The notes under the pieces were generated by a model. It was not told where the DNA came from. It saw nothing but the letters and a program-made list of their open reading frames with translations, and did no database searches. Source: Candidatus Aenigmatarchaeota archaeon (GTDB taxonomy: Archaea > Aenigmatarchaeota > Aenigmatarchaeia > Aenigmatarchaeales > JACQIB01). From it: a DNA stretch of 64,000 nt. Position numbers and translations under genes: made by a program. Where the stretch lies: assembly GCA_016198755.1 (NCBI GenBank), contig JACQIB010000005.1:64001-128000 (forward strand), in the 5' to 3' direction. Of this stretch, positions 1,801 through 50,000 are shown piece after piece (position 1 is the first letter of the stretch; each line of letters opens with the position of its first letter).

Positions 1801-2142
1801 ATGCCAGAAGTGAATCTTTCAACAGTGCTGAACGAGGCTTTTAGGAGGCTTAATGAAGCTTCCAGAAGATTGAGAGCTTCTGAAGAGAGGTATGATGTTC
1901 TTGAAACAAGGCTGGAAGGGCTGCAAAATACAATGCTTAAAATCAGCGATGAGCTTTCAGGGAAGATAGAGAAAAGTTCAGGGGAACAGAAGGATTTTGA
2001 AGCAAGGTTAGTTAGGATAGAAGCAGATCTTACAAAAATTGGGCAGGCTATGGAAAAGAGCGCAAAATCCTCTGATTTGGAGGAGTTAAAGAATCTTGTG
2101 GAGCTTTATTCCCCGTTTAAAGAAAAGAGAAAGAGTGATTGA
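1801..2142 (+). CDS. Small coiled-coil hypothetical protein (113 aa)
   Basis: ATG at 1801 (MPEVNLSTVLNEAFRRLNE...) with heptad pattern. The upstream part of the listed ORF overlaps the ATPase and is not credible. Confidence 0.8.
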   Translation: MPEVNLSTVLNEAFRRLNEASRRLRASEERYDVLETRLEGLQNTMLKISDELSGKIEKSSGEQKDFEARLVRIEADLTKIGQAMEKSAKSSDLEELKNLVELYSPFKEKRKSD

Positions 2143-2143
2143 A

Positions 2144-2791
2144 ATGGCAGAGAAAAGAGTTTTCATACCAATTGATCTGGCTAAAAAACTGGCTGGGGAA
2201 GGGAAAAATGAGGGGGATATTATTGAGGAATTAAAGAAAAGGGGATTTACACCCTTCCAGATTGACAATGCTCTGAAAGCAGCGCTGAAAGATGCTGTTG
2301 TTCCAAAAAGGCCTTATGTTTCAACCTTACCCCCGCCTCAGGAAAGTATTCCAATGGCTGAATCTGAAACACCTGTGAACGTTGCAGGCGTTGAAAAGCC
2401 TTCTGAAGGCTATCCTCCAGAGAAGATTTTAATTCCTGAAAAGCTCCAGCCATTAGCTCCACCTGGGGAAAGGCCTCCTGCAATGGACGAGACAAAGCCC
2501 AGCGCGGGCGAAGTAACAGTAGAGGAACTTGTAGAGTCTGTTGTTGAGGAGAGATGGCAGGGAATGGCTGAAAAAATCGGTGCTTTTTTGAACAAGGAAG
2601 AATCTATAGCTTCTGAGTTAAAGTCCCTTAGGGAAAAAATAGAGGATGTTTCATCAGCAGAAAAGGCAACAGATTCTACTCTTTCACAGCAGATAGACCA
2701 GTTTTCCTCAGACCATGGGAAACTAGAAACCCGCCTAAAAGCTCTTGAAAAGGCTTTTAAAGAATTTGCAGAATGGTCAAGGAAGAAATAA
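2144..2791 (+). CDS. Hypothetical protein: N-terminal helical domain, Pro-rich linker, C-terminal coiled coil
   Basis: ATG 1 nt after the previous stop; MAEKRVFIPID...IIEELKKRGFTPFQIDNAL; VEELVESVVEERW followed by heptads. Confidence 0.8.
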   Translation: MAEKRVFIPIDLAKKLAGEGKNEGDIIEELKKRGFTPFQIDNALKAALKDAVVPKRPYVSTLPPPQESIPMAESETPVNVAGVEKPSEGYPPEKILIPEKLQPLAPPGERPPAMDETKPSAGEVTVEELVESVVEERWQGMAEKIGAFLNKEESIASELKSLREKIEDVSSAEKATDSTLSQQIDQFSSDHGKLETRLKALEKAFKEFAEWSRKK

Positions 2792-3313
2792 CTACTGACG
2801 CTGCTGTGGGGGCCCTTCCTGTTTCTCCTTTCCTTCCATTACCATCCATATTATAGCAACTATTATTACAATGAAGAAGAATAATGTTACATTTGCCTGC
2901 CCAGAAATATCTATTTGAGGGAATCCAATAAGCTGTAGCCCGCCTGCTCCAACGAAAACAAGCACTGCTATTATCACAAGAGCTGCAGCAAAATATACTT
3001 CGTACTTTTTAATCAGCGTCCCGCCCTTTCCAATTCCAGCTATTTCTAAAAATACCAACAAAATGAGTATTCCCAATACAACCATTACAAGAGCTGAAGA
3101 TAGTTTTGAAAGGAAGCTAATTATTTCTGTGGGAGCTGAAAAAATAACCAAAAACCCTACAACTATAGAGATTATTGCACGTGCAGCATTTGATTGCGGA
3201 AGCTTTACTTGATGTAAAACTCCGTAAACTATTGCAAAGCTCAAAAGCCAGAGCAGTATCTCTGGAAACCCTAAATTTTGTAATGTTGATAAAAATTCAG
3301 CCATTTTTTCCAC
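2792..3313 (-). CDS. Multi-pass membrane protein, paralog 1 of 3
   Basis: About 5 hydrophobic helices; motif LLWLLSFAIVYGVLHQVKLPQSN. Confidence 0.85.
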   Translation of the reverse strand: MEKMAEFLSTLQNLGFPEILLWLLSFAIVYGVLHQVKLPQSNAARAIISIVVGFLVIFSAPTEIISFLSKLSSALVMVVLGILILLVFLEIAGIGKGGTLIKKYEVYFAAALVIIAVLVFVGAGGLQLIGFPQIDISGQANVTLFFFIVIIVAIIWMVMEGKEKQEGPPQQRQ

Positions 3314-3316
3314 CTA

Positions 3317-3838
3317 TTATTTTTTATCCCCGCCTGGCATACCTTCTTTGTACATAAACCAGAAGGCAACCGCGATTATTATTGCGAAAATTACTATCGC
3401 AACAAGTGTATCAGATATTTCTGGAACAGAGATATTTATAACACTCAACCCGCCTGCTCCAATGAAAACAGAGAGAAGAATAAGCAAAATAATGCCTCCG
3501 AAGAACTTTGGATGTGCCATGAAAATATGGGTTCCGCCTGTTTTAACCTGTCCTATCTCAAGGAAGATTACAGCAACTAACAGTCCAACAGCAATCAATA
3601 CTCCAGCTACCACAAGGTTCTGGAGGAAAGCTACAGCTGGGGAAGCTGCTGATGCTAAAAGAACAAGGAAAGCAGCTGAAAGTGCAATTACCCCTTTTGC
3701 AGTGTTTGACTGGGGTATTTTTGCATGGTGTAACATCCCATAAACAACAGCTAAAGTAAGCAGCCAGAGTAAAACCAAAGGGGCTCCAGCATCCCTCAAA
3801 ATCACAATCATATCTTCAATTCCTGCCATTTTAACCAA
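3317..3838 (-). CDS. Multi-pass membrane protein, paralog 2 of 3
   Basis: LLWLLTLAVVYGMLHHAKIPQSN and FLEIG...GGT...FIGAGGL align with paralog 1. Confidence 0.85.
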   Translation of the reverse strand: MVKMAGIEDMIVILRDAGAPLVLLWLLTLAVVYGMLHHAKIPQSNTAKGVIALSAAFLVLLASAASPAVAFLQNLVVAGVLIAVGLLVAVIFLEIGQVKTGGTHIFMAHPKFFGGIILLILLSVFIGAGGLSVINISVPEISDTLVAIVIFAIIIAVAFWFMYKEGMPGGDKK

Positions 3839-3867
3839 TCCTATTTTGCCTCCTATTTATTTAAAGC

Positions 3868-4353
3868 TCAGCCTGCCTGCTTGGGATCGTACTTATAGGC
3901 TATCCAAAAGATGAAAAATATTAAGACCAGCCCTATAATAAAGGCCAAGTTCTGCGAACCTATACTGGGTATGTTTGGAACAGCTGTTATTCCAACCATA
4001 AGGAAAGCAATGAAAGCCAACCCTACAACAATGAGGGTGAAAGGCTCAACCTTTTCTTTCCCAGTCTTATCCTTTCCTATCCCCAAAGCTTTTGCAAGGA
4101 AAATTATAAAGAAAAATACAACAAAAAACCATGCTAAACCCGGTAGGATTTGAAAGAAGGTTGTTGTAAAAGCACTGTTAGTAGCAGCAAAGAGAGCTAT
4201 TCCCAAAGCTACAACAGCATTAACAGGCTTGCTTTTTAAAACTCCAGCAGTCTGCAGAATCCCGAAAACAATTGCAAAAACAAGGACAAAAGGCAGGTAA
4301 AAGGTTTGGTCTAATAAATTAAATGGTAAGCTGAATTCTGCCATATAAACCAC
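3868..4353 (-). CDS. Multi-pass membrane protein, more distant paralog 3
   Basis: LPFVLVFAIVFGILQ...NAVVALGIAL; same helix layout as paralogs 1 and 2. Confidence 0.82.
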   Translation of the reverse strand: MVYMAEFSLPFNLLDQTFYLPFVLVFAIVFGILQTAGVLKSKPVNAVVALGIALFAATNSAFTTTFFQILPGLAWFFVVFFFIIFLAKALGIGKDKTGKEKVEPFTLIVVGLAFIAFLMVGITAVPNIPSIGSQNLAFIIGLVLIFFIFWIAYKYDPKQAG

Positions 4354-4985
4354 TAAACAAATTCCTTTGACCTTTCTAGTTCGCGTATCTTAGCTTCTAA
4401 ATCAGCTTTCCTGAGCCTCCATGCATTTCTGGACTCTTCTAATGCCCTTCTCTCATCTCCGGCTTTAGTGGCCGAATAGGCTATATTCAACTCTCTCATC
4501 TTCTCATCACATACAATTATATCACTCTTCAGCCTGTCAATAACCTTTCCCTGCTCCCTTCTAGACCATATTTTTCCACCCGCTTTTTCCAGCAACATGC
4601 CTCTGGCCGCAGTTGTTGAAGGGTGTAATATCTTAGGTAGCATAAAAATAACCAAGCTGGTTCCAACAGTTACGAGCATCCAGAACTGGGCTGCCGAAGC
4701 TATAAATGCGTACCAACCATTCCAGATAACAAAAATGTAAAATGCAAAAGACATTAAGAGTCCCAGACCTTTATGACCGGTTCCTATTCTACTATATACT
4801 ATAAAGAGCCACAAAACTATGACTATATGTGGGAAGAAAAGCAAATTCAATAAATCTGATGTCATATCTCCGGTTGGCTGAATCTTTAGAATCCCGAAAA
4901 TTAACTCTGCAATATTGACTTGAGACAGGTCTGGAATGTTAATATTGGGGAGTGTTCCGGCCCCTATCTGAAAGAGTGGAAACAT
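4353..4985 (-). CDS. Membrane protein with C-terminal coiled coil
   Basis: About 3 hydrophobic segments followed by a charged heptad tail (LKSDI...LEAKIRELE). Confidence 0.8.
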   Translation of the reverse strand: MFPLFQIGAGTLPNINIPDLSQVNIAELIFGILKIQPTGDMTSDLLNLLFFPHIVIVLWLFIVYSRIGTGHKGLGLLMSFAFYIFVIWNGWYAFIASAAQFWMLVTVGTSLVIFMLPKILHPSTTAARGMLLEKAGGKIWSRREQGKVIDRLKSDIIVCDEKMRELNIAYSATKAGDERRALEESRNAWRLRKADLEAKIRELERSKEFV

Positions 4986-5015: not shown

Positions 5016-6458
5016 TTACTCTTTCTTTTCATCATCAACTGGTGTTGATGTAACCTCTATTGGCTTATCTTCTGCTTTATCTGGAAGAATATATGTGAAA
5101 GAATCTGCGGCACCCTTTCCACCCTGAACTTTTGTCTTGCCCCTGAAAAATTTCCCAATTGGAAGAGAACCAGGTTTTAGCAACTCGGCTCTTTTCTGTA
5201 TATAGGCAACAACAGTGGCATCTGTAAGCTCCCCGGCTTTTCTCGCCTCGTCCACATCCCTTCTTGCCTGATCAAGTGTTAATCTCAACCCTGCAACATC
5301 GCGACCAACTTCATCTAACATACCCTGCTTTACAGTAGCATCATTTTCTGCAGCCTCTGCCCTCTTTCTCAGCTCTTCAACCCCTATTAACAGGGTTTCC
5401 CTGTCTGAAGGTGCTGCCTGAGCTTGCTGTACTATTTTATCTGCCTCTGCTTTCACTCTTTCTGCTGCAGCTGCCCTTTCCTCTGCAGTTTTCATGGCAG
5501 CCTCTAAAACTTCCCTCCTCCGCTGCATATCACCCTCCTGATCAACAATTCTTGCTTCCCTCAGATTGAGCGCATCTGCTATTGCTTTGTATTTTACAGA
5601 ATTTTCATCTTCAACAGCCTTGAGACCAGCCTTTTCTTTCTCCAACGCCAGCCTTTGCTGTTCTATGTCTTTTTCTTTCCTGCTAACCATATCAAGTTCA
5701 GCTGCAAGAGCAGCAGTTCCAAGCTGCCTCTCCTTTTCTCTATCTTGATATGCTGTCTCTTCTGTCCTTAGCTTGTCATCCCTTTCTTTCAAACTATCTT
5801 CAAGCTCTCTGTATTGAACCCAGCGCTGCCCCAGTTCCTTTGAACTTGCATCTATATCTGTTCTCTTGGCTTCTAGAGCTCTTGAAGTAGACTCAAATGT
5901 TTCTTTTGCCTGCTTAAGTTCTTCTTTCTCCTTATCAATCCTAGCTCTTTCTTCATCTATTTGTGCCTTTTCCCCAGCCAGTTCATTGTCTTTCTCTTTC
6001 ATGCGCGCTGAGGTCTCTGTATTAAACCTTATGTGCTCCTGAAGTTCTGACATTTGTGAATCATACCTGACTTCCCTTCCTGTTAGATTTTCCTCCCTTG
6101 CTCTCAAATCCCTCTCAACACTTCTCAGATGATTCTGGGCTGCCTTTATCTCATCTTCTCTGGCTTTAACTCCATACCTGCTGTTCTTTAGAACATCTGC
6201 TTCCTCTCTGAGTGCAGCAGCATATTCCCTCAAAAACCAGGTTGTTGCATCCCTTTCTAAATTATTTCTTGTTTCTTGGGTACCTATGGGATCTGCAGTC
6301 CTGTAGTGAGAAATAATATCAGCAAACTGCCTATATGCCTTATCACTTAAGCCCTCTACTTCCGGAAGTCCAAATTTTGATGTTATATGAGTGTAAAGGC
6401 TTTGAGCTGCTTTTATGTCCTTTTCTGCTCCGGCTGCCCTTGGATCATCATTTATCAT
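5016..6458 (-). CDS. Long coiled-coil protein with a novel N-terminal domain
   Basis: 480-aa ORF; roughly residues 80-410 are E/K/R/A-rich heptads; own TATA box and SD. Confidence 0.85.
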   Translation of the reverse strand: MINDDPRAAGAEKDIKAAQSLYTHITSKFGLPEVEGLSDKAYRQFADIISHYRTADPIGTQETRNNLERDATTWFLREYAAALREEADVLKNSRYGVKAREDEIKAAQNHLRSVERDLRAREENLTGREVRYDSQMSELQEHIRFNTETSARMKEKDNELAGEKAQIDEERARIDKEKEELKQAKETFESTSRALEAKRTDIDASSKELGQRWVQYRELEDSLKERDDKLRTEETAYQDREKERQLGTAALAAELDMVSRKEKDIEQQRLALEKEKAGLKAVEDENSVKYKAIADALNLREARIVDQEGDMQRRREVLEAAMKTAEERAAAAERVKAEADKIVQQAQAAPSDRETLLIGVEELRKRAEAAENDATVKQGMLDEVGRDVAGLRLTLDQARRDVDEARKAGELTDATVVAYIQKRAELLKPGSLPIGKFFRGKTKVQGGKGAADSFTYILPDKAEDKPIEVTSTPVDDEKKE

Positions 6459-6489
6459 ATTTTATCACTGAATATTAAAACTTAAATAC
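6456..6489 (-). promoter_or_regulatory. Duplicated promoter/start region, copy 1 (TATTTAA box, GTGAT SD, ATG)
   Basis: catattttatcactgaatattaaaacttaaatac matches 8078..8111 at 32/34 nt. Confidence 0.8.
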
Positions 6490-8080
6490 TACCCCATCTT
6501 GCATATGGATCATCATCTGTTGGATTAATCTCTCCTGGTGTTCCACCGTTTCTTTTATGAGGCACTACAGCTGGTTCTACTTCCAACGCTGGCTCCTGTT
6601 CTAAAGGCGGAGCTGATGGTGGCTCAGCGAAAGATACTGGTGGATATGGAACCGATCTTGGTCTAAATGGAACTGGTCCTGGTCTCCATGCTGGAGGTGG
6701 CTGTATAGGCCGTGAACCCTCTTCTACTTGTCCAAATGAAGCAGGCAATGGCTCCTCTCTTCCAGCTCGTTCCCCTTCTCCATATGCCCATGGTGGAGGT
6801 GGTGGAACAGGAGATTGTACTGGTTCATCATACTGAGATGGTGAATATGGTGGTGGCTCTCGAGGAGGAGCGAGTAATGGAATTGACTGTACTGGAGATT
6901 TTGGAGTCTCCGGAGGCGGAGGAATTGGTGATTTGCGTCGTGATAAATAGTATCCTAAACCAGCTCTCATTCTCCCTGCCCCGACTCCCATTTTATATAG
7001 GCCATCACTTGCATACCTTCTAGCAGACCTTCTTGCTGATTTTGCAGGTTTATTTGCTTCTTTTACACTATTCGCTAAGCTCTTTATCCCATCTAAAGTG
7101 TCAATCTCTTTGTTAGCCCATTCTTTTATGCGTTCCAATCTATTATTGTCTCCATAAAAAATAACACGATATCCAGGAGGAGAATTTTTGGAGATATCCA
7201 TCGGAACTTTTCCTTTGAGACTCGAAATTGTTGTTACTGCCCTTTCATCAATTGCAGTGCTATTACGTATCAGGTGATTTACTGCAGCCTCTACTTGGGC
7301 TTTGCTGCCGTAAAATCTTCCTCTCATAACTCTGCCTGTTTTAAGAGGCTTTGTAAGATCTGTTTTTTTCATTAAATATTCAGCAGCTCCGGATTTTGGT
7401 ATTAGAATAGCTGACCCGTCACTTCCGTAGTATGCGTTTGCTTCCCTACCTGGTTGAAATTCATAAGTAACTTTTTCTTTCTTAGGCTTTTGTGTTTTTC
7501 CAGGTTTAATTACTATAACAACCTCATCATCCGCATTTCCGGATTGAGGAATACTGTTACCTGACTCCCGTATATTAAATACCCCACCAATTGGAGTATA
7601 AGGCGATTCCCCTCTGAACCAACTTCTTGGTTTTCCGGTAGTAACTGGTGCTTGTCCGAAAGAAGATGGAACTGTTATGGGCGGAACTCCAGTAACCGGT
7701 TCATCTGAACCAGATGCACCGCTGGGTGAAAGATACCCAGGTCCTTTAACATCCGGAGTAGAAGAAGGTGGTGACGCTGTAGAACTTCCCCCAGCCCTCG
7801 ATTTGGCTGGATTATAAAAAGTATCCATAAACCAGTTGTATGCTGCATCAGCCTCTTCCCTTGAAATTTCTTTGAATCTTCCAGGATCTCCCATTACACG
7901 TGTGTCGACCCTTCTTACAGTAGATGATAATACAGCTAAAACGTCTTTCTCAGGTATTCCGTATTCTTTAACATCGCTCTCAAGAACTCCTGCCCTCCTT
8001 AATATGGATTTGTATAGAGTTCTGGCTCCCTGCATATCTGGACTTTCTGGAGGCGGTGTTGGTTTTTTGAATATTCCCAT
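6482..8080 (-). CDS. Pro-rich multidomain hypothetical protein (532 aa)
   Basis: Long ORF with two globular-looking segments separated and followed by P/S-rich low-complexity regions. Confidence 0.85.
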   Translation of the reverse strand: MGIFKKPTPPPESPDMQGARTLYKSILRRAGVLESDVKEYGIPEKDVLAVLSSTVRRVDTRVMGDPGRFKEISREEADAAYNWFMDTFYNPAKSRAGGSSTASPPSSTPDVKGPGYLSPSGASGSDEPVTGVPPITVPSSFGQAPVTTGKPRSWFRGESPYTPIGGVFNIRESGNSIPQSGNADDEVVIVIKPGKTQKPKKEKVTYEFQPGREANAYYGSDGSAILIPKSGAAEYLMKKTDLTKPLKTGRVMRGRFYGSKAQVEAAVNHLIRNSTAIDERAVTTISSLKGKVPMDISKNSPPGYRVIFYGDNNRLERIKEWANKEIDTLDGIKSLANSVKEANKPAKSARRSARRYASDGLYKMGVGAGRMRAGLGYYLSRRKSPIPPPPETPKSPVQSIPLLAPPREPPPYSPSQYDEPVQSPVPPPPPWAYGEGERAGREEPLPASFGQVEEGSRPIQPPPAWRPGPVPFRPRSVPYPPVSFAEPPSAPPLEQEPALEVEPAVVPHKRNGGTPGEINPTDDDPYARWGSI

Positions 8081-8111
8081 ATTTTATCACTGAATAGTAA
8101 ACCTTAAATAC
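8078..8111 (-). promoter_or_regulatory. Duplicated promoter/start region, copy 2
   Basis: catattttatcactgaatagtaaaccttaaatac. Confidence 0.8.
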
Positions 8112-9299
8112 CTATGGTTTCCCTCCTTCGTCATTATAAATAGTTTCCCAGTCAATTTCTGGTTTGGCATTCTTTTGAGGTGCGGACTTTTTTCTCCTGC
8201 CAAACAAAGTCCACTTTCTTTTGGGAGGTCCTTCTACTACTGTTATGCCTGATTGAGGAACTGGAACTGATACGGGATTAGAAGGTATTGTAGGTCCTAC
8301 AAGAGCTGTTAAACAACTTTGATAAAATTGTTCTGTCGGTCCCCTCAATTCAACATTATCACCCATACCAGCTAGGTCTCCTTTTGCCTTCAAAAGAGCA
8401 TTCATAATATTTCTTTGTTTATCAGTTACCCACAAAACAGCAGACTCCCCATCCCCATCTAAAGGAACTACACCTTTTATTTTAGAAACCATAACTGAAC
8501 CGGGTTTGTCTAAACTATATCTACCTTTCCTGAGTGTATCCAAAACACCGTCTGCATCTGTTTGTGTCATATTAATTAATCTTAATTGTTTTCCGGTATT
8601 TTGCCTTCTTAGATATTCCACTGCACCAGGTGTTAAATAAAGTTTAACTTCACCACCATCAAACCTTCTTATTTTTATTCCCGGCAGGCCTTCAGGAACC
8701 TCTTCATTATAGCCTACTCCGCCTTCTCCTGCAGATTCAACTCTTATTTGAATTGTTTTTACATTACTTTCTGCTCCATGTGAAGATGTTTCTGAACCTC
8801 CTTTAGTATCCTCATGAAATTCAGATGGAAGATTGTCGATCATGACAGTGTTCCAGTAAGCAGCAAATGATTTTGCATCTTCTCCACTAACCTCGTAATT
8901 GCCATTTCCAACATCTTTTACTGTTAATTTGAATCTCTTACCTAAACCTTCGCTATCAAAAACCTCTTTTCTTATCTTATCTAGATAGAATACACTTGAA
9001 TCAGTACGTTGTTTACTGCCCGGGAGCTCTGCTACACTTTGTCCAGTATCTTCGTAAACAGGATCAAGATCAGAATTAGTTGCCTTTTTCCATGCATCTC
9101 TTATTCTTTCAGCATCTTGACCTTCTACTAAGTATCCAGTATTATCCTTTGTGGGGGTTATTGTAATATCTAGGATTCTATCCCAAGCTCTTCTTTTGAT
9201 TTCTGTAAGATATGTTGCGTTTATAACATACCCCTTTACATTCCTGTTTTCTGGACTCTGAGCTTTTGGTTCTTTAGAATCTTCTGCTGCACCTTCCAT
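8112..9299 (-). CDS. Hypothetical protein (395 aa) with an internal tandem domain repeat
   Basis: YLTEIKRRAWD...GYLVEGQDAERIRDAW versus YLDKIRKEVFD...NYEVSGEDAKSFAAYW. Confidence 0.85.
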   Translation of the reverse strand: MEGAAEDSKEPKAQSPENRNVKGYVINATYLTEIKRRAWDRILDITITPTKDNTGYLVEGQDAERIRDAWKKATNSDLDPVYEDTGQSVAELPGSKQRTDSSVFYLDKIRKEVFDSEGLGKRFKLTVKDVGNGNYEVSGEDAKSFAAYWNTVMIDNLPSEFHEDTKGGSETSSHGAESNVKTIQIRVESAGEGGVGYNEEVPEGLPGIKIRRFDGGEVKLYLTPGAVEYLRRQNTGKQLRLINMTQTDADGVLDTLRKGRYSLDKPGSVMVSKIKGVVPLDGDGESAVLWVTDKQRNIMNALLKAKGDLAGMGDNVELRGPTEQFYQSCLTALVGPTIPSNPVSVPVPQSGITVVEGPPKRKWTLFGRRKKSAPQKNAKPEIDWETIYNDEGGKP

Positions 9300-11330: not shown

Positions 11331-11582
11331 TTACTGTTCTGGGCGCTGGAAGACTCCAAGCTGTGTGCAAATCTCCAGTATAGCCCAAGCCCAGATTACT
11401 GCCTCAAAGGCTCTAACTAAGTCACCGGAGCCTAGAAAGTGCTTTGAGTCGGAAATATAGGCTTTCATGTTTTCCATCATTTCTTCTCCTTTTTCGTCTG
11501 AGAGTTGTATTTGGTCTATAAATGGCTCTATTTTATCCAGCCACTTTTCAACTTCTTTCTCTGTCAGTTTCAACTTGTCCAT
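11331..11582 (-). CDS. DUF357 domain protein
   Basis: MKAYISDSKHFLGSGDLVRAFEAVIWAWA matches the archaeal DUF357 pattern; the family is often found next to dph5. Confidence 0.85.
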   Translation of the reverse strand: MDKLKLTEKEVEKWLDKIEPFIDQIQLSDEKGEEMMENMKAYISDSKHFLGSGDLVRAFEAVIWAWAILEICTQLGVFQRPEQ

Positions 11583-11633: not shown

Positions 11634-12392
11634 TTATTGGCTGCGGGTGGCCTTGAGTTTTTCCAATATAGATTTTTTGACAGACTTGAACTCCGGCACC
11701 ATTGGTATAAGTGGGTCTAGTTCAGAGTTCCAGATAGCCTCTTTAAGGTTCAGGTGCTTTTCAAATTTACCTGGGCTCCAGCTTTCCCTATAATATTCCA
11801 GTTTTTTATCTGTCAATTCCTTATCAAAGGAAACTCCTTTCTCAAGCAGGAACCAAAGATCATAAACATCCCTGGCTTTTGTTCGGCTCATTATAGCCCT
11901 GACCTTTTCAGCCAGTATTTCCCTTTCGTCCATTACTAGGACATCAAACTCCGGTAGTTCCTCAATAAATCTCCCAACGGTTTTAATTAGTGGTTTCAAG
12001 GTTACATTTTCCCTAAAGCTAAAGTCTATGATAAAATTGCAAATGCTGTGCCTTACACCAAGATATAACGGTCCAGTTATTCTAAGAATAATTTTTAAAC
12101 CGTTTTCATACTCCTTTGTCTCAATTTCGTACTCTATACCAAATCTTTTCAGTCCAGACTCTAATTTTTTAGTGTCTACCTTGCCTACGCATGTAAAATC
12201 CAAATCTTCTGAAAACCTGTTCAGACCATAGCATTTTTTTAAGGCAGTGCCACCCTTAAAAATAAGGGTGTTTCCATACTCTTGGTAGAGAATAAACAAT
12301 ATTATATTCTGGATATAGTCCTTTTCTGCTTGGCCTAGATTTTTTAGACCTGCAACTTTTGCATAGTTTTTTAATTCTTCCTTTTGTATCAT
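11634..12392 (-). CDS. AbiEii/DUF1814 nucleotidyltransferase toxin (type IV TA)
   Basis: EKDY, FKGGTAL, RFSEDLDF, EILAEKVRA and KARDVYDL motifs. Confidence 0.92.
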   Translation of the reverse strand: MIQKEELKNYAKVAGLKNLGQAEKDYIQNIILFILYQEYGNTLIFKGGTALKKCYGLNRFSEDLDFTCVGKVDTKKLESGLKRFGIEYEIETKEYENGLKIILRITGPLYLGVRHSICNFIIDFSFRENVTLKPLIKTVGRFIEELPEFDVLVMDEREILAEKVRAIMSRTKARDVYDLWFLLEKGVSFDKELTDKKLEYYRESWSPGKFEKHLNLKEAIWNSELDPLIPMVPEFKSVKKSILEKLKATRSQ

Positions 12393-13075
12393 ATCTTTAG
12401 CCTCCATTTACTATATGTTTTTTCCCATTTCTTTGAGAATGGATTTAAAACGACATAGTTTTTGTCTAAGATAAAGTTGTGAGATATATCCACGCTCTTA
12501 ATAGTTTCCAGTAAATAACCGACTCGCTTAATAACATTGTTATTGCCTGTGATCTGGAGGTATTTAACAACTTTATCCTCATCTATTTTTGCGTTCTCAA
12601 ATATTTTTATTATTTCGTCAAAATTTCCACATTCCTTTGGTCTCAGAAAACAGTCTATTAAAAGCTTTTCATCCTCTGCAATAAAAATATCCCCCTCGTC
12701 CGTTCTTATTTTTTTATAGCCAAAAACTGGCTTAATGGAAACAAATTTTATATCGTACCCTTCAAACTTTATTGGGACGGCTCTTCTTGTGGTCGCGACC
12801 TGAACAGTGTTAAGAATCTGTTCTGTGTAACCAAGAAAGTAGGATGCTGACCAGAACGAGATATAGGAAGGATAAACTATGTTGCTAGCTATCAAGAAAA
12901 TGCTGTCCTTTGTGGTGTAAGCGTTTCTTTTTATCTTTTTTACTAACCCTCTTTGTTTTAACCTGTTCAAAATCAACTTTGCATATATTCCCTTACAATA
13001 CCCAATACGCTCTATATCTTGTATCTTAAAGACCGCTTTAGCTCTAAGCTTATCTAAAAGTTCTATCGCTTTCAT
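12389..13075 (-). CDS. AbiEi-like antitoxin/transcriptional regulator
   Basis: N-terminal wHTH; PSYISFWSASYFLG; EKLLIDC; IKRVGYLLE; stop overlaps the toxin start. Confidence 0.85.
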   Translation of the reverse strand: MKAIELLDKLRAKAVFKIQDIERIGYCKGIYAKLILNRLKQRGLVKKIKRNAYTTKDSIFLIASNIVYPSYISFWSASYFLGYTEQILNTVQVATTRRAVPIKFEGYDIKFVSIKPVFGYKKIRTDEGDIFIAEDEKLLIDCFLRPKECGNFDEIIKIFENAKIDEDKVVKYLQITGNNNVIKRVGYLLETIKSVDISHNFILDKNYVVLNPFSKKWEKTYSKWRLKI

Positions 13076-13971: not shown

Positions 13972-14544
13972 CTATAACAGGGCCAGCACCCTTTTCCTTA
14001 AAATTGCTGGGTATGATTTCAGATAGTCATTAAGCTTTTCCCTGTCTATGCGCTTTCTGAACTCCCTTATTGTTTCCTTATCCAGATATTGGTTGAAATA
14101 GACAAAATCTATAAGTGTTTTTTCTATGTCAGAAACTGGAAAATAAAAATCCCCCTGTTTTATCATTTCAAAGCCAAACAGGTATTTTGGTTTTATCCTA
14201 TGCAGGAAAACCTTGTTTTCAAAAACCATTACTTTTCTGTGTTTAACCTTCTGGGCGGTAACTATAATTGTTACTGTTTCCTGCTCCCATAGATTATGTA
14301 TGCTAAGTGCCTCATTCAAACCTAGATAAGCTGGTCTGTAGCAAAACACAGCAAGTGTTGGATCATCTTGGAGGGAATAAAACCCTTTTTTAATTCTATT
14401 TAACTCCCCCCTCTTTATCATGTTATTTACTAGCAGATAACTATAATTTTTGTTCCTTACATCTATGTTTATGTCCCCGAGTGTGGCTACTGGAGTTTTT
14501 TTCAGAAATTCCCTTATTTGCTTTATGTATTTTATTCTGCCCAT
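13972..14544 (-). CDS. AbiEi-like antitoxin
   Basis: wHTH (RGELNRIKKGFY); PAYLGLNEALSIH; SDIEKTLIDF. Confidence 0.82.
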   Translation of the reverse strand: MGRIKYIKQIREFLKKTPVATLGDINIDVRNKNYSYLLVNNMIKRGELNRIKKGFYSLQDDPTLAVFCYRPAYLGLNEALSIHNLWEQETVTIIVTAQKVKHRKVMVFENKVFLHRIKPKYLFGFEMIKQGDFYFPVSDIEKTLIDFVYFNQYLDKETIREFRKRIDREKLNDYLKSYPAILRKRVLALL

Positions 14545-15179
14545 CTTTTAATACCCTCCAACATCTCGGACATTCTGGGAGTGACGCCAGAGAAAACCAA
14601 CTGCTCCAAGTTTTCCGGGTCCACGGGCTCTTTGAACCCCTTTATAAATTCCTTAAGGGAAGATTTCAGATTTCCGCCATTTGTAATCCTTAAAAGGAAA
14701 TATATATCATAGAGATCCCTTATTTTTCTTCTCTCCTTATAGGTTGCCAGTTTTTCTTTTAACAGCTCTTCTGGGGAGAGCATATTTATGTTGAGAAACG
14801 TCCCGTCTGAGAGCTCAAAAGGTTTTGTTACAAAGGTCTTTTTATTCTGAAAAACTGCTTCAAACCTTAGTATAATGCTGGAATAGGAAAATTTTGAGTA
14901 TATTGAACGGTGCTTTTCTCTAAATTTTATAGTTCCAAACCCCTTGTTCTCAAGGCTTTTTTGGAATTTAATTAAATCCTCAGAATTGCTTAAATCCTCA
15001 GGAAGGTAAACGTCTATATCCTCTGAAAATCTATTGCTTCCATAACATCTCCATATTGCAGTGCCTCCGTGCAGGACAGCTTTTGGAATAATTCTAAAAA
15101 GCTCAGAAACCATGATATCCTGAGCTAGAGCCAGCTCTTTTTGTCCCCGTTTTCTCAGCCTGCTCATAAGCGGCAACAT
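14532..15179 (-). CDS. AbiEii/DUF1814 nucleotidyltransferase toxin
   Basis: LHGGTAIWRCY, RFSEDIDVY, EELLKEK, KIRDLYDIY. Confidence 0.9.
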   Translation of the reverse strand: MLPLMSRLRKRGQKELALAQDIMVSELFRIIPKAVLHGGTAIWRCYGSNRFSEDIDVYLPEDLSNSEDLIKFQKSLENKGFGTIKFREKHRSIYSKFSYSSIILRFEAVFQNKKTFVTKPFELSDGTFLNINMLSPEELLKEKLATYKERRKIRDLYDIYFLLRITNGGNLKSSLKEFIKGFKEPVDPENLEQLVFSGVTPRMSEMLEGIKRWAE

Positions 15180-28143: not shown

Positions 28144-28234
28144 TGGTAGCGGAGGCTTGATTTGAACAAGCGACCTTCGGGTGTTTCAAGTTTTTTATGA
28201 GCCCGACGAGCACTCCAGGCTGCTCCACTCCGCT
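28144..28234 (-). tRNA. Initiator tRNA-Met(CAT) with a 13-nt intron (28183..28195) and encoded CCA
   Basis: AGCGGAGTGGAGCAGCCTGGAGTGCTCGTCGGGCTCATA[AAAAACTTGAAAC]ACCCGAAGGTCGCTTGTTCAAATCAAGCCTCCGCTACCA; A1-U72 pair, GGG/CCC anticodon stem, TTAAATA box upstream. Confidence 0.93.
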
Positions 28235-46742: not shown

Positions 46743-49700
46743 TTATTTCACCGTCACCGATTTGGCTAAATTTCTTGGAAAGTCAGGATTGCATCCTCTC
46801 ATTATGGCAAGGTGGTAGGCGAGAACCTGCATTGGTATTATCTGGCAGATGGAATTGAAAACTCCCGCATCCCATACTCTTATCCAGTGGTCAAACACCT
46901 CGTTGTTCTTGGGTCCGACTCCGATTATAATTGCTCCACGGGCTTTCAGCTCTGTTGCATTGCTTATAATATCTTTTTCTGTGTCCTCTGAAACAAAAAC
47001 AATACATGGAGTTCCTTTGTCTATCAATGCTATTGTTCCATGTTTCAGCTCCCCCCCAGGATAGGCTTCTGCATGTATATAGGATATCTCTTTTATTTTC
47101 AGCGCTGCTTCCATTGCTGTTGTATACTGCAAACCTCTCCCAATCAGATAGATATGCTCTTTGTCCTTTAGCAGCTCTGCAACCTTTTTTGTATGCTCCC
47201 TTGCAGCTCCTGAGGTTAAGTGGTATAAAATGTAGATAAGGTTCTGAAGTTTTTCTTTCCCGTCATCATATTTGCCTGCAACAGCATATGCCAAAAGGGT
47301 TAGCAGAGCAACCTGTGCAGTAAAGGCTTTGGTGGAAACAACTGAGATTTCTGGACCAGCGTTTGTCATAAGGTAATGGTCTGCCTCCCTCATTATAGTA
47401 GATCCCATAACATTTACAATGGCTACAGTTTCTGCTCCCCTCTCCTTTGCAGCCTTTATTGGAAGGAGGGTATCCATTGTTTCCCCTGACTGGGAAACTG
47501 CTATAACAAGAGTTTTCTCATTTATGAAGTCGGCATAGTTCATGAACTCTGAGCCTGTTATTGTTACTGTATTCATCTTTGCAACTTTTGCGAAAATATA
47601 GTTAGCATGCCTGCATGCATAGGAAGCTGTGCCGCATGCCACAAAAACAACATTCTCAGCTTTTCTTATCAGCTTTGCAATATTCTCAACTTTTTGCCTG
47701 TTTTGAAGTAAAGAACGCTTAACTGTATCCACTTGTTCTAGAATTTCCTTTATTGTAAAGTGATCGAAATTGCCTTTTTTTGCCTGTTCGGGAGACCAGT
47801 CTATTATATCCGGCTTCCTATCTACAACTTCTGCTGTCAGAAGATTTTCCAGCTTAACTCCGCTCTTGTCTATTATTGCCAGTTCATTATCCCTGAAAAA
47901 TAAAACCTTCTTTGTATGGTCTAAAAAAGCAGGTATATCAGAAGCTATAAAATATTCCTTCTCCCCTACACCTATAACAAGCGGGGAGTCCCTGCGCGCA
48001 GCCAGAAGCATTGGATAATCCTTATGGACAGCCAAAATAGCATAGGCTCCGTCTATTGTTTTTACTGTTTCCTTGAAAGCTTTTAGGAAATCCATTCCCA
48101 TATCCATAAAGTACTGGACTGCGAGGGGGATGGTTTCCGTGTCTGTCTGGCTGGCAAATTTGTATCCTTTTGACTGGAGAAAATTGCGCAGCTCCTGGTA
48201 ATTCTCAACTATCCCGTTATGTATAACAGCAATTTTTCCGTCATTTGAAAGGTGTGGGTGGGCATTTTCTTTCGTTACGCCTCCATGAGTTGCCCACCTA
48301 GAGTTGTGACTTATTAAACCATCTGCAACAAAATTTTCTGTCCCTGGAACTTGTAAGTCATAGACATAAGGAACATCGCTGACAAATTTTCTTATTTCAG
48401 TTATTTTTTGAAAAACAACATCGCTATTCAAATATCTACCAAGATCTGACGAGACTTCTATATTTCCTTTTGCCTGCATCAAGCTTAATAATTGAAGAGC
48501 TGATGTTTTTGTTATAAAGGCTTTTCCGTAAAGCGCTTTGCCCTTTATAGCATATTTCTGGTACATTTCTGCTTTTGTAAGCGGGATGGATTTGTAAGAA
48601 TGTGAGTGTCCCTTGATCATTTTAGAAAGTATACGCTCAGCTTTTTGTAGCTTTTCCGTGCTTGTAAAGCCAATGTTTTTTAAGAATCCCTCTACATCAT
48701 CCGCTGTGTTTATGTTTAGTCCATATACTGGACCCCATACTCTTTCATATTTACTGAAGGAAGACAATATTCCGAATCTTAACAAAAGGAGCTTTAGAGC
48801 CTTTATTAAATTTTCATTATTCATTCTAATCATAATTTGCCTGGATTTTGTGTTGCAGGCTGACTCTGCGTCAAACAATCCGCGTATAAAACCTCTTAAC
48901 TCTTCATCTGGTGTTCTGCCAATGAGTGGGGGCAGAGCCTTGCCTCTTCCAGTCTTGCATATTTCAGGAAAGTTGTACCTTATCCAATCGCATAAAAATT
49001 TGCTATTAATTTCTAATAGGAATGCCTCAGCTTCTTTTAACTTAACTATTCTGCTATTTACATTAAACAGTTTTTTTGCAATTTGTGCATATTTTTTCAA
49101 AACATCTTTTCTGGAGTCTTTAAACCTGATACACCTCTCGTGCACATGTCCGTCTCCAACTAAATAACCTAAGAACTGCAAAAGATCTTCACTGGTGGTT
49201 TCAGGCAATATAATATCTTTTCCGTGTATAGAGTAAACTACTAAAAACCTTTCAGGCTGTATGGAACATATTTGAGATAATTTTATCATAAAACTCTCTT
49301 CAAAATTTCTATCCATGCTACAGAAGTGATCTAAAACAGACCTGCTTAAGCCTGCAATAGTTGCAAATTTATCTATTGTAAGATTATTTTGCCTTAAATA
49401 AGACTTGAAGAGCTCTACAACATCTTTATCATATTTGTAATATCTCTTTAGTGGAACCGTACTTAGATGTTGCGTTTTCCCCTCTATAGTTATTCTAGAT
49501 GGGCATATTAAAATATCTCCGGTGGATAACTCACTTACATGCTTTACAGAAATTTTGCCACTATTTGCAACAAACATCCTGTGCTCTCCAGTACAGACTA
49601 AAGTATTTGCTGGGGTTTTTATCTCAAAAAGCTCATGAGGACTTTCGTGTCTCATTGCATAACAGCTTCTGGTTTTAAGCTTTAGAGTGTCAAAATCTAA

Positions 49701-50000
49701 TGTCATAACTTCTTTATAATCCATTATATCTTCTATTTTGCAGACTGTACCGTCGGCCAGCTGTATATAACTGTTAGGATGTAAGCAGTGGGCAAATGCA
49801 ATCTTTCCCTCAAACTTCTGGGCATCAAAGCCTGAAAAAACCTGATTTACCTTCCCAACATCCTTGTGAACAAGAACTCCGGAACCGTTTACAATAGCTA
49901 CCCCAGCAGAGTCATACCCCCTGTATTCCAGCTTTTTTATTCCATCCAAAACTATTTCCGTCCCGTTTCTCTCCCCAAAATATCCTATTATTCCGCACAT
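46743..50000 (-). CDS. glmS: Glutamine--fructose-6-phosphate transaminase with an intein
   Basis: MCGI, EYRGYDSAG, RWATHG, NAHPH, HNG, SQSGET, GELKHG, PRNLAKSVTV. Confidence 0.97.
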   Translation of the reverse strand: MCGIIGYFGERNGTEIVLDGIKKLEYRGYDSAGVAIVNGSGVLVHKDVGKVNQVFSGFDAQKFEGKIAFAHCLHPNSYIQLADGTVCKIEDIMDYKEVMTLDFDTLKLKTRSCYAMRHESPHELFEIKTPANTLVCTGEHRMFVANSGKISVKHVSELSTGDILICPSRITIEGKTQHLSTVPLKRYYKYDKDVVELFKSYLRQNNLTIDKFATIAGLSRSVLDHFCSMDRNFEESFMIKLSQICSIQPERFLVVYSIHGKDIILPETTSEDLLQFLGYLVGDGHVHERCIRFKDSRKDVLKKYAQIAKKLFNVNSRIVKLKEAEAFLLEINSKFLCDWIRYNFPEICKTGRGKALPPLIGRTPDEELRGFIRGLFDAESACNTKSRQIMIRMNNENLIKALKLLLLRFGILSSFSKYERVWGPVYGLNINTADDVEGFLKNIGFTSTEKLQKAERILSKMIKGHSHSYKSIPLTKAEMYQKYAIKGKALYGKAFITKTSALQLLSLMQAKGNIEVSSDLGRYLNSDVVFQKITEIRKFVSDVPYVYDLQVPGTENFVADGLISHNSRWATHGGVTKENAHPHLSNDGKIAVIHNGIVENYQELRNFLQSKGYKFASQTDTETIPLAVQYFMDMGMDFLKAFKETVKTIDGAYAILAVHKDYPMLLAARRDSPLVIGVGEKEYFIASDIPAFLDHTKKVLFFRDNELAIIDKSGVKLENLLTAEVVDRKPDIIDWSPEQAKKGNFDHFTIKEILEQVDTVKRSLLQNRQKVENIAKLIRKAENVVFVACGTASYACRHANYIFAKVAKMNTVTITGSEFMNYADFINEKTLVIAVSQSGETMDTLLPIKAAKERGAETVAIVNVMGSTIMREADHYLMTNAGPEISVVSTKAFTAQVALLTLLAYAVAGKYDDGKEKLQNLIYILYHLTSGAAREHTKKVAELLKDKEHIYLIGRGLQYTTAMEAALKIKEISYIHAEAYPGGELKHGTIALIDKGTPCIVFVSEDTEKDIISNATELKARGAIIIGVGPKNNEVFDHWIRVWDAGVFNSICQIIPMQVLAYHLAIMRGCNPDFPRNLAKSVTVK
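48303..49787 (-). mobile_element. 495-aa intein with LAGLIDADG homing endonuclease and HTH insert
   Basis: AH|CLHPNS..., TGEH block B, FLGYLVGDG, FIRGLFDAES, VYDLQV..TENFVADGLISHN|SRW. Confidence 0.95.

Follow-up and report, generated by a model that had tools for sequence, protein, structure and literature searches.

Genomes of DPANN archaea carry an unusually high share of unannotated, fast-evolving genes, which are clustered in islands (Makarova et al., 2019; PMC6393860). Here we describe a locus of this type in a 64,000-nucleotide stretch of archaeal DNA from contig JACQIB010000005.1 (the whole of which is hereafter called the window), where three adjacent orphan genes, P0001, P0002 and P0003, appear to be built in part from pieces of one another. 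Like the archaeal 'dark matter' islands, the locus lies in a DPANN genome and is an uninterrupted series of fast-evolving genes without annotation. It differs from them in that its genes fill a slot that keeps its place between conserved genes throughout the order, and share pieces among themselves; no such case is described in the part of the island survey available to us. The main finding is a lineage-restricted dark-matter slot with sharing of pieces inside the locus.

Other described systems resemble single parts of the locus. The tandem arrays of paralogous small membrane proteins next to the slot, TM161 and TM173, also arose by local duplication followed by divergence, and one pair of them aligns about as weakly (28.1 bits) as the best pair of segments in the trio, module B (27.7 bits). 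The trio differs from these arrays in that only parts of its genes are shared, in different architectures, and no orthologues are detectable in other genera. P0001 resembles coiled-coil scaffolds (SMC-related proteins, arcadin-4 and EzrA-type rods) in having a globular head followed by ~330 residues of practically Pro-free, heptad-periodic helix; it differs in lacking an ATPase head and a hinge, and its matches to such proteins reflect coiled-coil composition only. Ferredoxin-like small domains (ACT, HMA, an EF-G domain and CutA1-like) have the element order predicted for C1, the first repeat of P0003. C1 differs from them in that its best structural match (Z = 3.7) lies below the meaningful level; it is unrelated to them in sequence, and no motif for binding a ligand or metal was identified.

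Results

The trio lies in a slot whose contents diverge far faster than its flanks

The window is part of contig 3 of an archaeal genome of 0.89 Mb (89% complete), and it encodes archaeal MCM, TYW2 and DUF357 genes. Among named genomes, the closest is a metagenome-assembled genome of Candidatus Aenigmatarchaeota, which bears out the DPANN origin guessed in an earlier sequence-only reading of this DNA. P0001 (5016..6458, 480 aa), P0002 (6482..8080, 532 aa) and P0003 (8112..9299, 395 aa) are adjacent open reading frames (ORFs) on the minus strand, exactly as that sequence-only reading had described them; every peptide quoted in that reading was found in the three proteins. The other slot genes, the parts of these genes and the flanking genes from TM173b to DUF357 described below are likewise on the minus strand. 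Spacings of 23-31 bases separate the three genes, which form a tight same-direction row with two further orphans, P0004 (9303..9998, 231 aa) and P0005 (10095..11297, 400 aa). The upper boundary of the slot is the DUF357 gene (11331..11582, E (expectation value) = 9e-14), a housekeeping flank listed in 463 of 524 archaeal genomes and thus near-universal (PMC6393860). The lower boundary is P0006 (4353..4985, 210 aa), which has membrane segments and a C-terminal coiled coil; it is followed by three paralogous small multi-pass membrane proteins, TM173b, TM173a and TM161 (2792..4353), of a conserved downstream operon.

The same arrangement was found in related genomes. The TM173a family was present in 38 of 41 genomes searched, our own included, usually as tandem arrays. 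Twenty relatives' loci were fetched, seven of which showed both flanks. The gene order in relatives is DUF357, a variable stretch, a P0006-like gene, TM161, TM173 copies and a divergently transcribed coiled-coil gene; the conserved operon has one membrane-plus-coiled-coil protein and three to five paralogous small multi-pass proteins. P0006 had matches (E from 4e-10 to 4e-46) in 18 of the 20 loci, being absent from L036 and L038 only, and hydrophobic segments were also seen in its relatives. Between DUF357 and the P0006-like gene, five of the seven complete loci have a single ORF, one has two and one has four, compared with five in our genome.

Divergence inside the slot is far higher than around it. 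The flanking genes match their relatives at E values from 1e-10 to 1e-54, unlike P0002-P0004, for which no convincing relatives were detected in 40 related genomes. Even between two genomes of one genus, G002 and G006, slot orthologues match at E values of 6e-14 to ~1e-3 only. Among the reversed decoys, one low-complexity membrane protein reached 1.6e-6 and the rest ~0.01, which makes the weakest of the G002/G006 matches borderline. The pieces common to neighbouring genes have a parallel in G002, where a pair of slot genes lying next to each other and encoding 682 aa and 302 aa (L022 7569-10533) share a C-terminal module of ~95 residues (E = 1e-11). Neighbour piece sharing is therefore recurrent at this locus and not peculiar to one genome. 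As a separate observation, the 682-aa protein may contain a further internal repeat (z = 4.2, 1/1000 shuffles, with hand-chosen segments).

Module B is probably common to P0002 and P0003

Module B covers residues ~203-314 of P0002 (7139..7474) and ~199-296 of P0003 (8412..8705), corresponding to the middle of the 532-aa protein and the C-terminal half of the 395-aa protein, whose resemblance had been claimed from the sequence. In a single-pair BLASTP comparison, residues 207-295 of P0002 aligned with residues 203-281 of P0003 at 25% identity over 89 aa (E = 8e-4), and a profile comparison paired residues 199-296 of P0003 with 202-314 of P0002. Smith-Waterman alignment of the chosen segments gave z = 9.2, a score reached by none of 2000 shuffles. 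When the full-length proteins were aligned with BLOSUM62, 3 of 500 global and 4 of 500 block shuffles reached the score. The two copies thus show significant pairwise similarity over a domain-sized stretch, as members of a shared family would.

How often such a weak match is real was calibrated on all 404,550 protein pairs of the genome itself. The band from 27.7 to 40 bits held 422 pairs, seven of which were adjacent genes against 0.93 expected, a 7.5-fold enrichment. TM173a/TM161, at 28.1 bits, is one of the seven, and its paralogy was confirmed through relatives. Given 7 adjacent pairs against 0.93 expected, a neighbour pair scoring like B would be real about six times out of seven. On these comparisons we hold module B to be probably real, and with considerable confidence. 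The predicted structure of B in P0002 has the order beta-beta-beta-alpha-alpha-beta-beta-alpha, in a low-confidence model (predicted local distance difference test (pLDDT) < 50). That B and C, the repeat described next, are variants of a single module was rejected (z < 0).

A candidate tandem repeat in P0003

Domain C had been read as occurring twice in P0003. The two copies, C1 (residues 21-85; 9045..9239) and C2 (residues 98-165; 8805..9008), are in tandem and equal in length. Alignment of the chosen segments gave z = 5.1, reached by 3 of 2000 shuffles. The self-comparison was run with Smith-Waterman; the BLAST heuristic does not seed the C repeat and hence is uninformative. The AlphaFold2 (AF2) model of P0003 has a mean pLDDT of 40.8, and C1 is its best part (pLDDT 62-76), with predicted strands (E) and helices (H) at E23-27, H28-42, E47-49, E55-59, H60-74 and E81-83. 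C2 (pLDDT < 50) repeats the alpha-beta-beta-alpha portion in register with C1 where the two are aligned.

The beta-alpha-beta-beta-alpha-beta order of the C1 model is the one that defines a ferredoxin-like fold, and in a fold search with the P0003 model, which is of low overall quality, almost all of the weak matches of C1 were to ferredoxin-like domains, at Z <= 3.7, with Z >= 5 for none of 48,161 chains. Neighbours of low TM-score listed for the Atlas model include HMA and EF-G-type domains. The model thus gives a tentative hint that C1 falls in the ferredoxin-like fold class.

The N-terminal heads and a shared upstream cassette

The third proposed relationship, domain A, would join the N-terminal head of P0001 (residues ~13-90) and residues 7-99 of P0002 (7784..8062). 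AF2, run on an alignment that included the P0001 head, modelled the P0002 head as a helical domain (pLDDT 79-92 in most blocks; helices 14-30, 34-39, 44-64 and 66-97), and a fold search with this head yielded nothing beyond generic helical matches (best Z 5.4). The resemblance starts at residue 14 in one protein and at residue 15 in the other. With BLOSUM45 only, the alignment reached z of about 4 (to 4.2; 1/1000 shuffles), while six negative-control pairs of N-termini gave z <= 2.2. Placement of the P0001 fragment by MAFFT was unstable.

Directly upstream, the same two genes carry a 34-base cassette. The copy before P0001 (6456..6489) contains a TATA-like TTTAAG and a ribosome-binding-like GTGAT motif and ends at the ATG; the copy before P0002 (8078..8111) likewise ends at the ATG of that gene. 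The copies are identical at 32 of 34 bases, and the 0.89-Mb genome has no further copy when up to 6 mismatches are allowed. In the loci of four relatives, the best-matching pairs of upstream regions agree at just 15-19 of 34 bases. Identity stops sharply at both edges, which argues for a discrete regulatory cassette and not a recent large duplication. A shorter GTGATAAAATATG-type context stands before the start of P0004 and, altered, before P0003.

Could the shared pieces be chance similarities?

The three genes might instead be unrelated fast-evolving orphan neighbours, with at most B shared, and A and C picked out of charged, helix-rich sequence. A number of results speak for this explanation and weigh against the sharing of pieces. 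The A match was not significant by BLASTP (E = 3.5), was equalled by 82 of 2000 shuffles (z = 2.1), and is not the best local alignment of full-length P0001 and P0002. For C, 19 of 300 shuffles of the whole protein reached the best internal alignment, 86 of the genome's 728 proteins, and 44 of the 216 that are comparable in length, had an internal score as high as that of P0003, and the elements of C2 are predicted with low confidence. Even B loses strength in wider comparisons: with full-length proteins and BLOSUM45, its score was reached by 29 of 500 global and 92 of 500 block shuffles, and at proteome scale the match was weak (BLASTP E = 0.32; phmmer E ~5 among 6527 ORF segments), with about one adjacent twilight pair per genome expected anyway. 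The agreement of P0002 and P0003 in the order of B elements is not independent, because each was folded with the other's B in its alignment. Outside our genome, none of the modules matched relatives' slot proteins above reversed decoys, so that homology of slot contents across genera is argued from position and architecture alone.

On the other side, adjacent pairs in the twilight band are 7.5-fold enriched, C1 and C2 are tandem, equally long and have their predicted elements in register, and neighbour sharing is unambiguous in G002. The A matches start at nearly the same residue in both proteins, and P0001 and P0002 alone share the 32/34 cassette. A wholly or mostly chance origin of the resemblances is for these reasons unlikely. 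C is plausible as a tandem repeat, not proven: the chosen segments and the predicted structural register favour it, and the whole-protein comparison is marginal. A is unproven, and we put it slightly below an even chance; the claimed similarity of the N-termini is not significant, and what favours it is indirect, namely the confident helical head of P0002, the N-terminal register and the common cassette. Three domains chained across neighbouring genes, as first proposed, was therefore an overstatement, with A not significant and C marginal once hand-picked segments are set aside. The trio has one solid and two tentative internal relationships, and its members are moderately interesting orphans.

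The trio is almost without relatives

None of the proteins of the cluster reached a curated cut-off in Pfam, NCBIfam or PHROGs, and the best E value in a sequence search of the PDB was not below 0.04; none of the family libraries tried and no solved structure names the three domains, which had not been recognised from the sequence either. Matches of P0001 were below threshold: to Pfam TPR_MLP1_2 (PF07926) at 16.5 bits and E = 0.0088 (gathering cut-off 36 bits), and to NCBIfam SMC_prok_B at 19.9 bits (cut-off 567) and ASRP at 20.8 (cut-off 300), the last two confined to coiled-coil stretches. In a protein collection, P0001 carries a precomputed Pfam label, PF28019.

In the 40 related genomes, the lone match of P0002 (E = 0.002, 62 residues) lay in another contig context. 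When 42 genomes of the order were searched with a profile of A, a single match lay off the locus, at E = 0.006, with ~0.25 expected. An exhaustive HMMER search of 1.84 billion representatives, using a profile made of P0003 and the B core of P0002, had three hits, namely P0002, P0007, which is a shorter alternative call of P0003, and P0008. P0008, a 215-aa protein from a single metagenome contig of 36 kb, is the sole outside relative. It is 68% identical over 69 aa to residues 280-345 of P0003 (8265..8462), the only part with a relative elsewhere, and then diverges and continues into a long Pro-rich tail that P0003 does not have. C1, C2 and the core of B were unmatched outside the locus in this search. 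Word-based searches of 5.8 billion clusters retrieved only the queries themselves. Among 3776 candidates, no homologue of P0003 was found, and searches with residues 1-340 of P0002 and 1-100 of P0001 returned only the queries. When metagenomes were scanned with P0006, the matches were one cut contig and one by coiled coil alone.

The stretch itself is present, identical, in four DNA runs of one groundwater study, which may be its source; no RNA dataset is listed among those that hold it. In two of the four runs, a foreign contig matches 18-base stretches at 7058-7075 (P0002) and 8964-8981 (P0003), ~500 bases apart there and ~1900 in the window. In data of this size the match could be accidental; alternatively, the contig could be distantly related to the locus.

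Some candidate relationships were rejected. By eye, relatives' slot proteins seemed to share a small module with the trio ('...DG.Y.V.G..ED..F...' and 'L.P..GA.EYL'). A two-copy C profile found nothing, profile-profile probabilities were <= 0.6, and B, C, A and tail segments were not above decoys among 31 slot proteins. P0004 was considered as an orthologue of the small DUF357-adjacent protein of other families, whose hidden Markov model does not reach it.

Architectures of the slot proteins

The architectures first proposed, C-C-B for P0003, A-B-Pro-rich for P0002 and A-coiled coil for P0001, are correctly labelled, with the addition of the conserved segment 280-345 in P0003. P0001 has a head, a coiled-coil rod at residues ~95-425 and a Gly/Lys-rich tail with FFRG at residue 437. 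The rod segment contains one Pro in 331 residues and has heptad periodicity of up to z 4.7. P0002 consists of head A, a Ser/Pro/Gly linker, module B, a helix, a basic Gly-rich segment and a long Pro-rich tail (residues ~383-500; 6581..6934, from sequence and the composition track). In P0003, C1, C2 and module B are followed by the conserved helical segment (280-345) and a short basic tail, LFGRRKK. P0005 has a helical N-terminus, a Pro-rich linker, a Cys4 zinc-ribbon-like motif (CPSCG...CGCCG) and a C-terminal tandem repeat of ~35 aa (internal score 76), with sub-threshold DZR and TPR matches. A 19-residue hydropathy scan revealed no hydrophobic or signal peptide-like segment in P0001-P0005.

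The pattern [FW]FRG is found at residue 437 of P0001, residue 154 of P0002 and residue 74 of P0004; it occurs 7 times in a crude set of 900 ORFs of the genome, and these three compare with 0.06 expected. As a conserved short linear motif it was rejected, since relatives' slot proteins have none (0.25 expected) and the pattern was picked post hoc. P0003 (residue 365) and P0008 have LFGRRK and LFRRGKK.

Neighbouring genes

The membrane-protein operon (2792-4985) may be the more important unknown at the locus. Its TM proteins of ~165-175 aa have no Pfam or NCBIfam family. By language model, their neighbours are archaeal clusters without names, and the few taxa recorded for these include Methanobacteriota, Aenigmatarchaeota and Nanobdellota. 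The divergently transcribed gene beyond the operon (2096-2791, plus strand) encodes a small helical N-domain, a Pro-rich linker and a coiled coil. Relatives also have it beside the membrane array (E as low as 1e-16), and it has weak coiled-coil matches only, to arcadin-4 and EzrA models.

Two AbiEii/AbiEi toxin-antitoxin pairs, at 11634-13075 and 13972-15179, lie just past DUF357. Farther away, a GlmS-type gene with glutamine amidotransferase and SIS domains (46743-50000) is split by an intein with a LAGLIDADG domain, and a tRNA-Asp call at 28144-28234 is 91 bases long, above the standard tRNA length, so that an intron is possible. An Rfam scan of the window gave no matches.

Discussion

We favour, at about even confidence, the view that P0001-P0003 occupy a hypervariable slot, are restricted to their lineage and evolve very fast, having been built by local duplication of gene pieces, with a membrane-associated scaffold role. 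The slot lies between DUF357 and the conserved membrane-protein operon in a small Aenigmatarchaeota-like (DPANN) genome, and its genes would be built and rebuilt by local duplication of pieces: B copied between the neighbours P0002 and P0003, C duplicated in tandem within P0003, and the 5' regulatory cassette, probably with the helical head A, shared by P0001 and P0002. After duplication the copies would diverge until nearly unrecognisable. The bounded slot, the faster divergence of its contents and the pieces common to neighbours are at least partly seen in the data, and from them we infer an origin by local partial duplication and rapid divergence. Modular turnover also fits P0008, which keeps 69 aa at 68% identity to P0003 and then differs, with its Pro-rich tail.

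Most likely, the products reside in the cytoplasm as structural or adaptor proteins and would form a membrane-associated scaffold together with the membrane proteins encoded next to them. P0001 is predicted to provide a head and a ~330-residue rod, P0002 to be a head-linker-B-Pro-rich adaptor and P0003 to be a repeat protein. The constant linkage to the membrane-protein operon suggests such a membrane-associated structural role. This putative function is read from composition and neighbourhood.

The slot proteins could alternatively be exported or surface proteins through which an episymbiotic DPANN cell interacts with its host, handled by the adjacent membrane proteins, with a host arms race driving divergence and modular turnover. 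Their divergence far above that of the flanks, the constant linkage to a conserved, uncharacterised membrane-protein array, the Pro-rich and repeat-bearing architectures and the small genome (0.89 Mb) of DPANN type, with a relative among Aenigmatarchaeota, are all compatible with this. Yet no segment of P0001-P0005 is hydrophobic or looks like a signal peptide, basic tails and a long heptad rod would be more usual in a cytoplasmic scaffold, and library scans identified no secretion ATPase or known secretion component in the cluster. We regard a role at the host interface as distinctly unlikely.

A more specific version of the favoured scaffold would be modular, lineage-specific and membrane-anchored, with the P0001 rod, the P0002 adaptor and the P0003 repeat protein joined via the heads and B modules that they share and attached to the array of small membrane proteins. 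It could form the cytoplasmic side of an episymbiont cell-cell contact apparatus that is rebuilt in each genus by shuffling among neighbours. Shared ancestry of modules does not itself imply homotypic binding, and we judge this elaborate form improbable.

A remnant of an integrated virus or mobile element beside the membrane-protein operon is highly improbable: the all-orphan content, the two AbiE pairs just past DUF357 and weak coiled-coil-type PHROG matches on neighbours would suit it, but P0001-P0004 belong to no PHROG family, the cluster has no integrase, the only tRNA gene found (28144-28234) is ~17 kb past the slot, the GC content of the slot matches the remainder of the window, the related loci that were examined have the slot in this position too, with analogous architectures, and no relatives came from searches of viral contigs with P0002 and P0003 or of phage records with P0003 (no search covered plasmid records).

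To our knowledge, almost nothing is known about the cell architecture of DPANN archaea. The locus offers a concrete, bounded case in which an unnamed membrane-protein operon, found in 38 of 41 genomes, stands beside a slot that changes beyond recognition between genera. Should the more specific scaffold described above be real, A, B and C would be new protein domains and the locus an example from nature of rapid domain shuffling in a prokaryote. If its products are made and associate with the membrane proteins, the locus would provide a handle on a lineage-specific cell structure and would exemplify the birth of multi-domain proteins by local partial duplication.

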